This document shows positions 1,096 through 62,989 of a DNA stretch of 64,000 nt, in pieces. The notes under the pieces were generated by a model. That model was not told where the DNA came from. It saw only the letters and a list, made by a program, of their open reading frames with translations, and did no database searches. The position numbers were made by a program, and so were the translations under genes. Source of the stretch: a virus; the IMG/VR virus record IMGVR_UViG_3300045988_182214. One strand, written 5' to 3'. Within the stretch, counting starts at the first letter, position 1. Each line of letters opens with the position of its first letter.

Positions 1096-1109
1096 TTTTT
1101 CTGTCATTA
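1096..1109 (+). promoter_or_regulatory. phage promoter-like motif TTTTCTGTCATTA
   Basis: Member of the 32-copy TTTTCTGTCATAT family; 37 nt upstream of ATG 1146. Confidence 0.55.
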
Positions 1110-1145
1110 ATTTGTTAAATAATATTGAAAAGGAGAACAAATTAT

Positions 1146-2900
1146 ATGTGTATAACATGGAAGAAGAAAAATACTGATGAGGTAAATTTTATTGAAAAAG
1201 CAAATAAATATTTTGCTGATTTTAATAATGGTAGAGAAACATCTGAATATTATAAAATTTCCGATTTTGACAAGGCGTTTAATTTACTTAGTTTATTTAA
1301 ATATAAGCCAGTTAGAATAATAGGAGATTATGATACCGATGGAATATGTTCAACATCTGAATTAAATCTTATGTTATTAGACCTTAAATTCTCAGATGTA
1401 AAATGGTATATACCAGATAGAGAATTAGATGGATATGGAGCTTCTGCAAATATTGTAGAATATTTATGTAACGAAATATCAATTCATGGTTTACCAGTTA
1501 TAAAAAATTATGATACAGGATTATTAATAACTGTAGATAATGGTATCGCAGCTCTTGATGCAATAACAAAGGCAAAAGAATTAGGTTGGAGTGTTCTTAT
1601 TTTAGATCATCACCTTCCAGTTATTGACGAAACCAATAAAAAAAAAATATTGCCACCTGCAGATGTAATTATTGATCCTCATGCAGTTGATTGTGGTGCA
1701 AAATTCTCAGATTATTGTGGTGCAGGGCTTGTATATAAATTTGCTCAGCATATTAAGCAATTAAATTTGCCAGAATGGTATATTAAAGATGAAACAATAG
1801 ATAAGATAAACGGTCTTGCTGCTATTGCAACTGTTGGTGATAGTGTTAATTTAATTGAAAATATTAATGGAGTATATGGATATGATAATTATTTAATACT
1901 CAAGAACGGGCTATTCACATTAACACAGAATTCTGGACGTACAACCGGAATGTTCTGCTTACTTGTAGGTCTTAAACCTGATCTTGAAACTGTTGTAACA
2001 ACTGATGATTTAGCTTATTTAATAAGTCCTACCATTAACGCTATTTCAAGACTGGAAACTTTTGGTTCTAATCAGGTAGTAGACCTTTTCCTTCAGAATG
2101 ACAATGACTTTGTTACAGCAATTGCAAAAGCAAAGGTTCTAGTAGAAGCAAACGAAAAAAGAAAGGCATATACTAATGACCTTTTACCTGTTTTAAAACA
2201 GCGTATAGAGGAAGCTCATATGGAAAATGACTATCCTATTGTTATATGTGGTAAGGAAGGAGAAATACATCCGGGAGTTATTGGCTTAATTGCCGGTAAG
2301 TTACAGGAAGAATACAATACTTCTGTTATTGTATTTGCTCCAATAAATAATGGTACCGCCTATAAAGGTTCTGCAAGAGCACCAGAAATTGAAGGGGCAA
2401 ATGTTAATATGAAGTTATTATTAGATCAGGTTAAGCAGTATATGGGTAATTATGGAGGACATCCGTATGCAGCAGGTATTTCAGAAGTTAAAGCTGAAAA
2501 TATGGATAAGTTTATTGAAGCTATACATGAAGCTGCAGGAGAAAAGCCAAAAGAGTTCAATTACAAGTATTATGATTACGATATTACAGTAGAGCAGGTA
2601 AAGGAAGAGCAGGAAGCCTTTCATAATTACATTTTTGGAAAAGGATTTGAAGAGCCAAGATATAAAATTTCTTATATGACAGAACTAAGAAAAGGTGTAT
2701 ATTATCAGCTTTTGGGTGCTGAAAAAAAGGTTTTAAAACTCTTTAATAATCAGGCTAACGCAATTAATTTTGGCGGGTTAGTTGAAAAATTTGAAAAGCT
2801 TGGAGAACCAACTGTTTTAACTTTATATGGAAGATTAAGTGAAAATACATGGAATGGCGTAACAACTCCACAGATTATTTTCGAAGATATTGATTATTAA
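1146..2900 (+). CDS. RecJ-like DHH-family 5'-3' ssDNA exonuclease
   Basis: DHH motifs present: GDYDTDGICS (I), YIPDRELDGYG (II), LLITVDNGI (III), LILDHHLP (IV), and GGHPYAAG. SD AAAGGAG 8 nt upstream of ATG 1146; the ORF-track start at 1125 is TTG. Confidence 0.8.
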   Translation: MCITWKKKNTDEVNFIEKANKYFADFNNGRETSEYYKISDFDKAFNLLSLFKYKPVRIIGDYDTDGICSTSELNLMLLDLKFSDVKWYIPDRELDGYGASANIVEYLCNEISIHGLPVIKNYDTGLLITVDNGIAALDAITKAKELGWSVLILDHHLPVIDETNKKKILPPADVIIDPHAVDCGAKFSDYCGAGLVYKFAQHIKQLNLPEWYIKDETIDKINGLAAIATVGDSVNLIENINGVYGYDNYLILKNGLFTLTQNSGRTTGMFCLLVGLKPDLETVVTTDDLAYLISPTINAISRLETFGSNQVVDLFLQNDNDFVTAIAKAKVLVEANEKRKAYTNDLLPVLKQRIEEAHMENDYPIVICGKEGEIHPGVIGLIAGKLQEEYNTSVIVFAPINNGTAYKGSARAPEIEGANVNMKLLLDQVKQYMGNYGGHPYAAGISEVKAENMDKFIEAIHEAAGEKPKEFNYKYYDYDITVEQVKEEQEAFHNYIFGKGFEEPRYKISYMTELRKGVYYQLLGAEKKVLKLFNNQANAINFGGLVEKFEKLGEPTVLTLYGRLSENTWNGVTTPQIIFEDIDY

Positions 2901-2985
2901 TATCTGAATACACAACACAGCAACTAAATATTTTAATAAATAAGGCAATTTCATTGATTTGAGATTGTCTTATTTTTCTTTTTAA

Positions 2986-2995
2986 GCTGTCATAT
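2986..2995 (+). promoter_or_regulatory. promoter-like motif variant GCTGTCATAT
   Basis: 36 nt upstream of ATG 3031. Confidence 0.45.
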
Positions 2996-3030
2996 TTTTA
3001 ATATAAAGTTATATATATTGGAGGAAAAAT

Positions 3031-3522
3031 ATGGAAAATAATAAACAGATTATATTAGCAATAGATCCAGGAGATGTTAAATCGGCTTATTCATTATTAG
3101 ATAGTAATTATCATATATTGGACAAAGGATTATTAGATAATAATGAATTATTAAAATTAATGAATAAAATTGATTTTGATATTTTAGCAATAGAAATGAT
3201 AGCTTCATATGGTATGGCAGTAGGAAAAACTGTATTTGATACATGTGTATGGATTGGCAGATTCATTCAAGTAACTGAAAGCAGAAATATTAAATGGACG
3301 CAAATATACAGAATAGAAGAAAAACAATTTATTTGCCATGATTCGAGAGCAAAGGATGCAAATATAAGGCAAGCATTAATAGATAGATTTGGAATTGTAG
3401 GAACTAAAAAGAATCCGGGATGGTTTTATGGCTTTAAAAAAGATATCTGGGCTTCATATGCTGTTGGTGTAGTCTATTTAGATAAAAAGAGAGAAGAGTT
3501 GCTTAAACAAAATGTCTCTTAA
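3031..3522 (+). CDS. RuvC-like Holliday junction resolvase
   Basis: N-terminal ILAIDPGDVKSAY matches the RuvC ILGIDPG motif; DILAIEMIASYG matches the second acidic motif; 163 aa; SD GGAGG upstream. Confidence 0.55.
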   Translation: MENNKQIILAIDPGDVKSAYSLLDSNYHILDKGLLDNNELLKLMNKIDFDILAIEMIASYGMAVGKTVFDTCVWIGRFIQVTESRNIKWTQIYRIEEKQFICHDSRAKDANIRQALIDRFGIVGTKKNPGWFYGFKKDIWASYAVGVVYLDKKREELLKQNVS

Positions 3523-3564
3523 ATATAAATTAAATTAATTTATGTAAAAAATTATTCAACAAAA

Positions 3565-3574
3565 ACTGTCATAT
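3565..3574 (+). promoter_or_regulatory. promoter-like motif variant ACTGTCATAT
   Basis: 39 nt upstream of recA ATG 3613. Confidence 0.45.
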
Positions 3575-62023: not shown

Positions 62024-62099
62024 AAATAAGGCTTTAGCTGGAAAAAATAACAGTTAGAGCCTTCTAAACAAAAAAACAAAACAGAAGGAATAAAATATT

Positions 62100-62528
62100 A
62101 TGAATGAATTAAAACTTAAAATAGGAGATAAAGTACTTATAACTAATGGACTTCCAACAGAAGATAAAATAGGAACAGTAATAAAAATTACTCCAACCGG
62201 AAGAATAAAGTTAGATATATATACAGACTATCAGTTTGATAAATATGGCAGACAGATGGGAAACAGAGATATATGGAGCAGAAGCAAAAGCATAAGAATC
62301 CCTGATAAAGAAGATTATAACAGAGTCCATAAAAATGAAATTATAGGGCATATTTATTCAAAAATTAAACAGGTCAATATTCAGAATTTTTATGATACAA
62401 ATATTAATACACTTGAGATTTTAGATAATTGTCTGGATTTAATAGGAGAAAGTAAAGAGCCTGAATATATAAAATCAAATGCAGATAATTCAAATAACCA
62501 GAGTATTGATTTGAATGAAGAAAGGTAA
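62100..62528 (+). CDS. hypothetical protein
   Basis: SD GAAGGAA upstream. Confidence 0.5.
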   Translation: MNELKLKIGDKVLITNGLPTEDKIGTVIKITPTGRIKLDIYTDYQFDKYGRQMGNRDIWSRSKSIRIPDKEDYNRVHKNEIIGHIYSKIKQVNIQNFYDTNINTLEILDNCLDLIGESKEPEYIKSNADNSNNQSIDLNEER

Positions 62529-62542
62529 AAGAGTATAGCTTT

Positions 62543-62896
62543 ATGGAGAATAAAAGTGTTAGAATAAAATTAGACATTATAGATAAATTAAAAAATGCTA
62601 AACATCAGATATCTTTAGATGATGAAGATTTAGAACACTATCAGGAAGCTATAGATGATGCAATTGAGATAGTAAAATCTTCAATTATTCCTGAACCTGT
62701 AAAGAAATTAACAAGAAAAGAGCAGGGCAAAATAATATGTGAGCATTTAAAACATGATGGTGATGATTTAGATGAAACAGTAATGATAAGTTCTGTATGG
62801 GATGCTTTAAAAGAGATTGAAAAGATTAATGACAGTAAAGGTATAAAAGAATCTAATTGTCCTGCATTATATTTCCATGCAATAGAAAAGGAATAG
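62543..62896 (+). CDS. hypothetical acidic protein
   Basis: Weak SD. Confidence 0.45.
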   Translation: MENKSVRIKLDIIDKLKNAKHQISLDDEDLEHYQEAIDDAIEIVKSSIIPEPVKKLTRKEQGKIICEHLKHDGDDLDETVMISSVWDALKEIEKINDSKGIKESNCPALYFHAIEKE

Positions 62897-62914
62897 GTAA
62901 ACAGATTATCAAAA

Positions 62915-62948
62915 AAGCTTCTATGTAAACTCATAGGAGCTTTTTTTT
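62915..62948 (+). terminator. rho-independent terminator
   Basis: AAGCTTCTATG taaac TCATAGGAGCTT followed by T8. Confidence 0.75.
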
Positions 62949-62975
62949 GATATATATGTTAATTTATTAATTTTA

Positions 62976-62989
62976 TTTTTCTGTCATAT
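62976..62989 (+). promoter_or_regulatory. promoter-like motif TTTTTCTGTCATAT
   Basis: 36 nt upstream of ATG 63025. Confidence 0.55.

Follow-up and report, generated by a model that had tools for sequence, protein, structure and literature searches.

Phage sigma factors that serve promoter classes of their own are known from several systems, including gp28 and gp33/34 of the B. subtilis phage SPO1, gp55 of T4, which acts at late promoters of the form TATAAATA, and gp36 of phiEco32. Jumbo phages that lack an RNA polymerase (RNAP) also often encode RpoD-like sigma factors, and these are presumed to send the host RNAP to phage promoters (reviewed in PMC13282480 and PMC7824862). The DNA analyzed here, a stretch of 64,000 nucleotides (nt) from IMG/VR record IMGVR_UViG_3300045988_182214 (hereafter the window), carries many copies of a short motif, TCTGTCATAT, together with a gene for a sigma-70 family protein, and appears to be part of a giant, low-GC mobile element. 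Judged from sequence, the motif almost certainly forms the promoter core of the element, and it is probably an extended -10 promoter without a -35 box that is read by the element's own RpoD-derived sigma factor.

The element resembles the phage systems in combining a sigma-70 family protein with a conserved -10-type motif that is not that of the host, and its sites share with T4 late promoters the absence of a -35 box. Unlike the sigma factors of SPO1, T4 and phiEco32, which are minimal or highly divergent, the sigma of the element is a near full-length RpoD derivative. The motif also differs from the promoters of these phages in keeping a TG, and a single class spans replication, repair, transfer RNA (tRNA) and accessory genes over at least 100 kb of contiguous DNA. 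Furthermore, the carrier of this motif, unlike that of the phage systems, may not be a phage. A sigma factor with cognate promoters on a mobile element is already known, while the match between residue and base at position -12 and the genome-wide use of such promoters in a giant, prevalent element are without published description. A literature search for the motif string returned only unrelated primers and nothing relevant, and promoters are not mentioned in the papers on the Inocle (PMC12340149) and Hodor elements.

Occurrence and register of the motif

The exact 10-base core TCTGTCATAT occurs 22 times in the window against 0.44 expected, with 21 copies on the plus strand and one on the minus strand, and the 13-mer TTTTCTGTCATAT matches 24 times there with at most one mismatch (0.69 expected). 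A preliminary description of this DNA had listed 32 copies, all on the plus strand, and all 32 coordinates hold the core or a one-mismatch variant of it. A position weight matrix (PWM) built from the sites and scanned over both strands of the window returned 33 plus-strand sites scoring at least 9 and seven weak minus-strand matches; the additional site, at 41633 (TCTGCCATAT), is intergenic. The motif is not spread through coding regions, as 32 of the 33 sites fall within 9.7 kb of intergenic DNA, and the sole site that overlaps an open reading frame (ORF), at 16436, lies within its last 30 nt. Most gaps of at least 50 nt between genes in the first 37 kb hold a copy. Beyond the window, the motif continues from about -20 kb to about +80 kb, and in about 1 Mb of related (redundant) DNA the core occurs 425 times on the plus strand and 33 times on the minus strand, in 155 distinct contexts.

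The copies had been placed 30-50 nt upstream of a Shine-Dalgarno (SD) sequence and ATG. This agrees with 25 sites at which the ATG lies 38-50 nt from the motif start behind a strong AGGAG-type SD; exceptions with long leaders are found at 4731 (459 nt), 8256, 10336, 45506, 48972 and 52070. The sequence TTTATCAAA, said to follow the motif in the copies preceding 8513, 12275 and 16480, is present at 12233 and 16436, whereas the copy at 8469 has TATATCAAA instead.

The motif often lies directly after an intrinsic terminator, as first proposed: at 18 of the 33 sites a strong hairpin with a T-tract ends within about 12 nt of it. Terminator-like hairpins are enriched (18 against 6.2 expected, and 12 against 4.1 expected) and are almost all on the plus strand. 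The terminator thus leaves no room for another promoter between itself and the motif, and at these sites a -35 element would have to lie within the terminator. The TTGACA-17-TATAAT consensus is matched no more often than by chance (119 against 126 expected, and 125 against 150 expected), and the earlier observation that the motif sites lack a -35 box is borne out. Terminator adjacency and intergenic placement together support the view that the motif heads transcription units. In related contigs the motif also precedes an array of 12-16 tRNA genes, the first of which starts 26 nt after the core. The absence of an SD and an ORF behind this copy argues against a translational role. A tRNA scan of the window itself found none.

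Alignment of the sites sets the register of the motif. Beyond the core and an upstream T-tract, only two flanking positions are conserved, namely those 16 and 17 nt from the first T of the motif. Of 155 non-redundant contexts, 133 have a pyrimidine at the former position (45/50 in a smaller set) and 143 a purine at the latter (47/50). This T/A-type pair lies 7 nt after CATATN, which is the usual spacing from a -10 hexamer, and the conserved purine is the putative transcription start. With this purine taken as +1, the motif reads T-17 C-16 T-15 G-14 T-13 C-12 A-11 T-10 A-9 T-8 N-7, followed by an A/T-only discriminator. The TG at -15/-14 and the A at -11 are invariant, as are C-12 and C-16, positions at which sigma-A prefers T and a purine, respectively. 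Conservation stops at -8 apart from the -1/+1 pair, and position -7 shows no preference for T (A68/T67/C19/G1 over the 155 contexts). The earlier reading of the motif as a TG-n-CATAT extended -10 element is therefore supported by the conserved start pair. A placement of the motif as a -35 element was ruled out, since the start would then fall after the SD.

In this frame the motif is similar to the extended -10 (TGn) promoters of sigma-A and sigma-70 and to the Gram-positive "-16 region" TRTG, with TG one base upstream of the hexamer, A-11, T-10 and A-9, independence of a -35 element, and a putative purine start about 7 nt downstream. It differs from them in having C for T at -12, C for a purine at -16, T for A at -8 and no preference for T at -7. 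The motif is thus in an extended -10 frame, but its hexamer departs from TATAAT in having C instead of T at -12 and in not keeping T-7.

The preliminary description had also read the 43-58 kb region of small genes as nearly free of the motif and had proposed a second temporal promoter class from it. The near absence was overstated, as copies lie at 42771, 45506, 45660, 48972 and 52070. The motif-free stretch is confined to 52.1-58.9 kb, where terminators are absent and gaps are short. Because the region keeps five copies, followed by one long terminator-free operon, and because no shared alternative motif was found in the motif-less gaps of the window, there is no evidence for a second temporal class in it.

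The actual subdivision is instead a subset of sites, class B, in which TTTRTGTMARA lies exactly 15 bp upstream of the core (seven sites in the window against 0.06 expected). Class B accounts for about a fifth of the sites and class A, with a T-tract at -24 to -18, for about 80%. Class B sites are mostly without the T-tract, and the two upstream features thus seem to substitute for each other. Class B promoters head recA, the flotillin leader, the sigma operon, a DUF5688 gene and the small-gene array, and the promoter of the sigma operon is of class B in the window and in both related lineages that carry the sigma gene and were examined (L121, at 8637, and L154, at 18345). When metagenome contigs were scanned for the composite pattern, 120 stretches were retrieved, all in human-gut assemblies and on contigs of 140-460 kb (the largest 459 kb). 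Several stretches occur per contig, always co-oriented, and on the strand concerned the exact core is found 346 times, compared with 12 on the opposite one.

The class B element occupies -43 to -33, about 4-8 bp beyond the canonical -35 placement; as a canonical -35 box it would require a spacer of about 21-22 bp and was rejected as such. Its reverse complement resembles TTGACA/TTTACA, and no -10 element follows it on the minus strand. Candidate roles are those of an UP-like element, a contact for region 4, an activator site or an entry point for host sigma-A. Putative tandem class A and class B promoters accompany the tRNA arrays (12-16 genes) at L181 5966-8213, L266 6739-10569 and L154 250-4050, where some tRNAs have odd anticodon loops, for example with 4-base "tcaa" and "ccca" calls.

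The strict conservation of the motif and its fixed distance to start codons would also fit an activator or repressor site used with host sigma-A, in the manner of T4 MotA, or a signal acting at the RNA level through processing or the 5'-untranslated region; the second, separately recognized element of class B is consistent with this as well. This explanation is nevertheless very improbable indeed. The motif sits at the -10 position relative to the conserved pyrimidine/purine pair, and the interval from the motif to the SD contains no further -10-like element. Its location directly after terminators means that it would rarely be transcribed from upstream, and it precedes tRNA genes that have no SD.

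The encoded sigma factor and related lineages

The ORF at 34245-35273 shows Pfam domains Sigma70_r2 (1.8e-14) and Sigma70_r4 (7.6e-11), with r1_2 and r3 additionally found in its cellular homologues. It matches PHROG 351 as well as SigA/RpoD structures in the PDB (3e-43). Its nearest cellular relatives are the RpoD/SigA primary sigma factors, at about 37% identity, yet its scores against the best curated RpoD equivalog models (172-180 bits) stay below their cut-offs (354-572 bits). It is a diverged RpoD derivative that falls outside the primary (group 1) RpoD/SigA cut-offs. In a profile search, a clade of four lineages is set apart from cellular RpoD by a fall from 611 to 220 bits. No close relative was found in GTDB genomes, which leaves no basis for a host assignment.

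Residues were numbered as in E. coli from an alignment with RpoD, checked by PDB offsets. The sigma of the window retains Q437, H455, E458, R584, E585, R588 and Q589 and has H at position 433 and Y at position 440, which are H156 and Y163 in its own numbering. The four lineages of the clade have H/N/N/N at 433 and Y/I/L/L at 440 (I in P0003, L in P0154 and P0155), while W433 is found in 112 and T440 in 107 of the 115 top homologues. Only two sigma-70 suppressors of a -12 T:A to C:G change are known, T440I and Q437H, and H455 and E458 contact the G:C pair at -14 (PMC2613000). The conserved and the substituted residues thus parallel the motif: H455 and E458 are kept where TG is kept, and the substituted positions 433 and 440 face -12, where the motif departs from TATAAT. 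As in the E. coli T440I mutant (PMC2613000), a bulky hydrophobic residue at 440 (I, L or Y) coincides with C-12. Unlike the laboratory T440I and Q437H mutants of that study, the change at 440 is natural and fixed in the clade, is combined with W433 to H or N, and leaves Q437 unchanged. Two 316-aa homologues, the short RpoD-like sigmas P0005 and P0010, carry T440M and E458D and may represent another mobile-element sigma with altered reading of -12 and TG.

A reader of the SigE, SigK, SigF or SigG type was rejected, since the RpoD models score far higher than the sporulation models (SigBFG 98 bits against a cut-off of 234, SigK 91 against 252 for P0003). The promoters of the Bacillus sporulation factors sigma-E, sigma-K and sigma-G have a CATA-type -10, a -35 element and no TG. 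The -10 of the element likewise begins with CATA, but its sigma is not of that family.

The sigma gene and TCTGTCATAT co-occur in the three lineages examined: the window, L121 (a 149-kb contig whose sigma is 51% identical to that of the window) and L154. The sigmas of L121 and L154 are 41-51% identical to that of the window, and both loci are syntenic with the window, with a split dnaE, an Rce1-like gene, a small ORF and then the sigma gene. In both, TCTGTCATAT occurs on the coding strand only. At three orthologous promoters the core is 93% identical, compared with 34% upstream and 50% downstream of it. Two distant relatives, L152 and L153, which were linked to the family through an 844-aa protein (34-36% identical), are without TCTGTCATAT. 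L152 has an intergenic motif CCATAAT (5371, 6086, 6096, 19074, 19250 and 21367) and L153 an intergenic motif AATAGTCATAAT (2955, 7733, 9609 and 12762), both 34-40 nt before start codons. These small samples hint at a C at -12 throughout the family. The sigma genes of L152 and L153 were not found.

The main alternative is that host housekeeping sigma-A reads the motif as an extended -10 promoter, in which case the encoded sigma would serve another, unseen class, or would not act at these promoters at all. Seven of 11 positions agree with the Gram-positive TRTG-n-TATAAT frame (TG, A-11, T-10 and A-9 among them), extended -10 promoters need no -35 box, the genes seen are for replication and repair, typically an early class, and the location of the sigma gene behind the motif is explained most simply if the host reads it. 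C-12 and C-16 are invariant, however, where sigma-A prefers T and a purine, and T-7 is not preferred. These non-consensus bases are strictly kept across lineages whose sigmas share 41-51% identity, which would be unexpected for sigma-A. Consensus promoters are not enriched, whereas an unrelated gut phage locus (L147) does show ordinary TTGACA-17-TATAAT promoters. Finally, the sigma of the element is altered at exactly the positions that face -12. Reading by host sigma-A is accordingly regarded as unlikely.

The original suggestion of a phage-specific promoter class, read by the phage's own sigma or dependent on an activator, can be refined on this basis. Recognition by the element's own sigma instead of host sigma-A is plausible, given the substitutions at 433 and 440, the retained TG residues and the co-occurrence in three lineages, and the activator part is disfavored.

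In the mechanism proposed here, TCTGTCATAT would span -17 to -8 of an extended -10 promoter that needs no -35 element, and such promoters would drive essentially every unit of a giant low-GC extrachromosomal element, either a huge phage or plasmid-like. The reader would be host core RNAP carrying the element's own RpoD-derived sigma. The region 3.0 residues of this sigma would read TG, and the replaced region 2.3/2.4 residues facing -12 (W433 to H/N, T440 to Y/I/L) would give it a preference for C at that position, and with it a promoter code separate from that of host sigma-A. Upstream contacts would be made with the T-tract at -24 to -18 in class A or with TTTRTGTMARA at -43 to -33 in class B, the class found ahead of recA, a large tRNA array and the operon of the sigma itself. 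The chances are about even that these features amount to a private, genome-wide code, in which an RpoD-derived sigma (T440I/L/Y, W433H/N) and TCTG-T-CATAT promoters with C-12 would insulate hundreds of genes of a giant (at least 270 kb), human-associated Firmicutes element from host sigma-A, with class B as entry point or high-output promoters.

Several points weigh against recognition by the element's own sigma. The link between sigma and motif is correlative: all three examined sigma-bearing lineages share one motif, and the sigma clade has only four lineages before cellular RpoD is reached, with no pair in which both sigma and motif have changed. T-7, normally a key sigma-70 contact, is not conserved (A68 and T67 of 155). 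The recognition residues of region 4.2 are of the sigma-A type, yet no TTGACA-like -35 box is present at the sites, and the class B element is about 4-8 bp too far upstream to serve as a canonical one. Because the sigma gene stands behind its own motif, its first expression would need host sigma-A acting at class B, read-through, or carried-over sigma. Furthermore, only part of an element of 270-830 kb was sampled, and another polymerase or other sigmas are possible elsewhere on it. The sigma-A consensus used for comparison may also not be that of the host.

The carrier element and neighboring features

Proteins identical to those of the window are found on contigs of 270-830 kb, some of which reach 700-830 kb, in hundreds of human metagenomes; the samples of these carrier contigs are gut metagenomes. 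Over a span of at least 100 kb, every gene is on one strand. Fragments of the element are listed in IMG/VR. No virion genes (terminase, portal, capsid or tail) were seen in the window, its flanks (about 100 kb contiguous) or the 40 largest new protein clusters of scattered loci, a partial coverage of the element. The neighborhood and the scattered loci encode PARP-like ART, HD-GYP, GGDEF, class A PBP, Sir2, Cas9, topoisomerase and NAD ligase proteins, together with PcfJ-like proteins, a T2SSE ATPase, a partition protein, RtcB, a CCA-adding enzyme and TnpB. Such a repertoire is suggestive of a plasmid or an Inocle.

Inocle elements of oral Streptococcus are 245-368 kb in size with a GC content of 24-32% and carry RecJ, RecD-like helicases, Pol III alpha, an "RpoS" sigma, a bifunctional transglycosylase, signal peptidase S26 and tRNAs (PMC12340149). 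Compared by description only, the element resembles them in the kinds of genes, size and GC content; it differs in that some carrier contigs reach 700-830 kb and come from gut instead of oral samples. Published Inocle_004 primers were not found in the loci examined or in IMG/VR. Identity with a Hodor megaplasmid was rejected on GC content (44-47% against 29% here), and a Lak-like alternative genetic code on stop codon usage: all three stop codons are used, none occurs in frame, and the code is standard. A megablast of 12 kb against GenBank phages matched only a 4.4-kb gut fragment, tblastn of the sigma and the helicase against phages gave only distant or host-like matches, and a 14-mer motif scan of IMG/VR returned single, uninformative chance matches.

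The size of the element bears on a further alternative, in which the motif would be the promoter of a separate element-encoded RNAP, single-subunit (T7/N4-like) or multisubunit (phiKZ/AR9-like), lying outside the examined DNA. The 10-bp block from -17 to -8, the A/T-only stretch and the fixed start dinucleotide resemble single-subunit promoters, only a fraction of the 270-830 kb was sampled, and no fold or family is known for the conserved 844-aa protein (5190-7724). Scans of about 70 proteins encoded in the window, its flanks and scattered loci, however, detected no RNAP domain. The spacing of TG, C-12 and A-11 fits sigma-70 geometry and is matched by the specific substitutions in the sigma, and jumbo phages with RpoD-like sigmas are generally without a polymerase of their own. 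The 844-aa protein, which occurs in all lineages of the element family at 30-59% identity, was rejected as a hidden polymerase; searches of Pfam and the PDB gave no match for it, and its distant relatives carry a TerD-family annotation. Promoters of a separate polymerase are thus a very unlikely explanation.

The promoter sites and the sigma gene are compiled below.

Table 1. Motif sites in the window, with their upstream class where assigned, and the sigma factor gene.
Feature	Coordinates	Strand	Context
Core TCTGTCATTA, class A	1100..1109	+	Heads recJ 1146-2900; terminator 1045-1087 abuts
Core GCTGTCATAT, class A	2986..2995	+	Heads ORF 3031-3522
Class B, TTTATGTAAAA-N15-ACTGTCATAT	3539..3574	+	Heads recA 3613-4707
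Core	4731..4740	+	459-nt leader, then 844-aa conserved protein 5190-7724
Core, class A	7781..7790	+	Heads 7828-8250; terminator 7742-7769
Variant core TATGTCATAT	8256..8265	+	Followed by leader-RNA-like element (core at 8322), terminator 8392-8419
Core, class A	8469..8478	+	Heads 8513-8785 and primase-like 8782-9720
Variant core TCAGTCATAT	9786..9795	+	Heads 9831-10256
Class B	10310..10345	+	Followed by leader element (10397); heads flotillin gene 10475-12049
Core, class A	12233..12242	+	Heads UvrD-like helicase 12275-15196
Variant core TCCGTCATAT	15265..15274	+	Heads 15313-15600 and Rce1-like 15600-16466; terminator 15224-15255
Core	16436..16445	+	Within last 30 nt of preceding ORF; heads DNA methylase 16480-17376
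Core, class A	17711..17720	+	Heads 17755-17904 and guanylate kinase 17931-18494; terminator 17682-17705
Class B	18533..18568	+	Heads small ORFs and leader from 18615
Core, class A	19983..19992	+	Heads 20033-21082
Core, class A	21168..21177	+	Heads 21215-22366
Core TCTGTCATGT	22435..22444	+	Heads dnaE part 1 (22478-24319); orthologous promoter in L121 at 2560
Core, class A	25510..25519	+	Heads 25557-25793
Core TCTGTCATTG	27572..27581	+	Heads 27616-28074
Core TCTGTCATAA	28692..28701	+	Heads 5'-3' exonuclease 28733-29614
Core TCTGTCATTT	30104..30113	+	Heads 30151-30732
Core TCTGTCATAA	31079..31088	+	Heads dnaE part 3 (31124-32809); orthologous promoter in L121 at 6821
Class B, TTTATGTAAAG-N15-TCTGTCATAT	32858..32893	+	Operon of Rce1-like 32922-33833, 33837-34232 and sigma 34245-35273; terminator 32831-32853 just upstream
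Class B	36482..36517	+	Heads DUF5688 gene 36553-37488
Class B, core TCTGCCATAT	41607..41642	+	TCTGTCATAT in strain variants L143 and L144; tandem with 41692
Core	41692..41701	+	Heads 41739-42086
Class B, TTTGTGTCAAA-N15-core	42745..42780	+	Heads 42818-43255 and small-gene array
Core	45506..45515	+	Followed by leader-RNA-like element (45531)
Core, class A	45660..45669	+	Heads 45704-46243
Core, class A	48972..48981	+	Heads 49022/49115-49351
Core, class A	52070..52079	+	Last copy before 6.9-kb terminator-free small-gene operon
Core, class A	58974..58983	+	Heads 59019-60299
Core, class A	62980..62989	+	Heads 63025-63375
Sigma-70 family gene, diverged RpoD-like	34245..35273	+	W433H, T440Y; H455/E458/R584/E585/R588/Q589 kept (E. 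coli numbering)

A leader-RNA-like element of about 65 nt, ATTATCGAAGAATAGCAAGAAAACTCCATTCGACAATAGTCGATTGTGAATAGTTCAT, lies mostly between a TCTGTCATAT promoter and the next gene. Copies occur in the window at 8290-8360, 10365-10440, 26454-26541, 45516-45590 and 48575-48650, and further ones in L132 (about 5200-5290) and L121 (about 6190-6290). Pairing in its hairpin is kept by compensatory changes (CGAC/GTCG to CAAC/GTTG, and CTCCA..TGAG to CCCCA..TGGG), and the copies at 48604 and in L121 share about 170 nt more. An Rfam scan of the window and the leader regions, this element included, gave no match. Between small genes, an intergenic repeat of about 41 nt, TGATTTACTGGTATGMATGAGTAGACAAGAGTTTCTTTAGA, is found at 50174-50215, 50627-50667 and 53795-53835.

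The sigma gene is followed by a non-coding stretch of 1.28 kb (35274-36552) in which the GC skew drops to about 0, with a counterpart in L121 at 12027-13400. At its start, a hairpin followed by a variant, TATGTCATAC, is conserved in the window (35322-35352) and in L121. At least four copies of TATATATTGTTA(W)T lie at 36140-36360, and these repeats could be iterons, an origin or operators. DnaE, the DNA polymerase III alpha subunit, is encoded in three ORFs (22478-24319, 24694-25452 and 31124-32809), the last of which is separated from the second by 5.6 kb that hold other genes. Parts 1 and 2 flank an HNH endonuclease in L121 and are fused in other strains (849 aa). The structured-looking 375-nt gap at 24320-24693 could be an intron.

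Significance

If recognition by the element's own sigma holds, it would represent a natural re-coding of -12 recognition by a sigma-70 family protein, so far known mainly from laboratory suppressor mutants. It would also make testable predictions on the start site, on the dependence on C-12 and C-16, and on a swap of specificity through residues 433 and 440. The PWM provides a usable annotation rule for the transcription units of these poorly annotated elements, the carrier of which should not be assumed to be a phage. The pair of sigma and promoter would be a candidate orthogonal expression part for low-GC Gram-positive bacteria, and in its natural setting it would constitute an orthogonal sigma/promoter pair that governs a whole giant mobile element common in human metagenomes.

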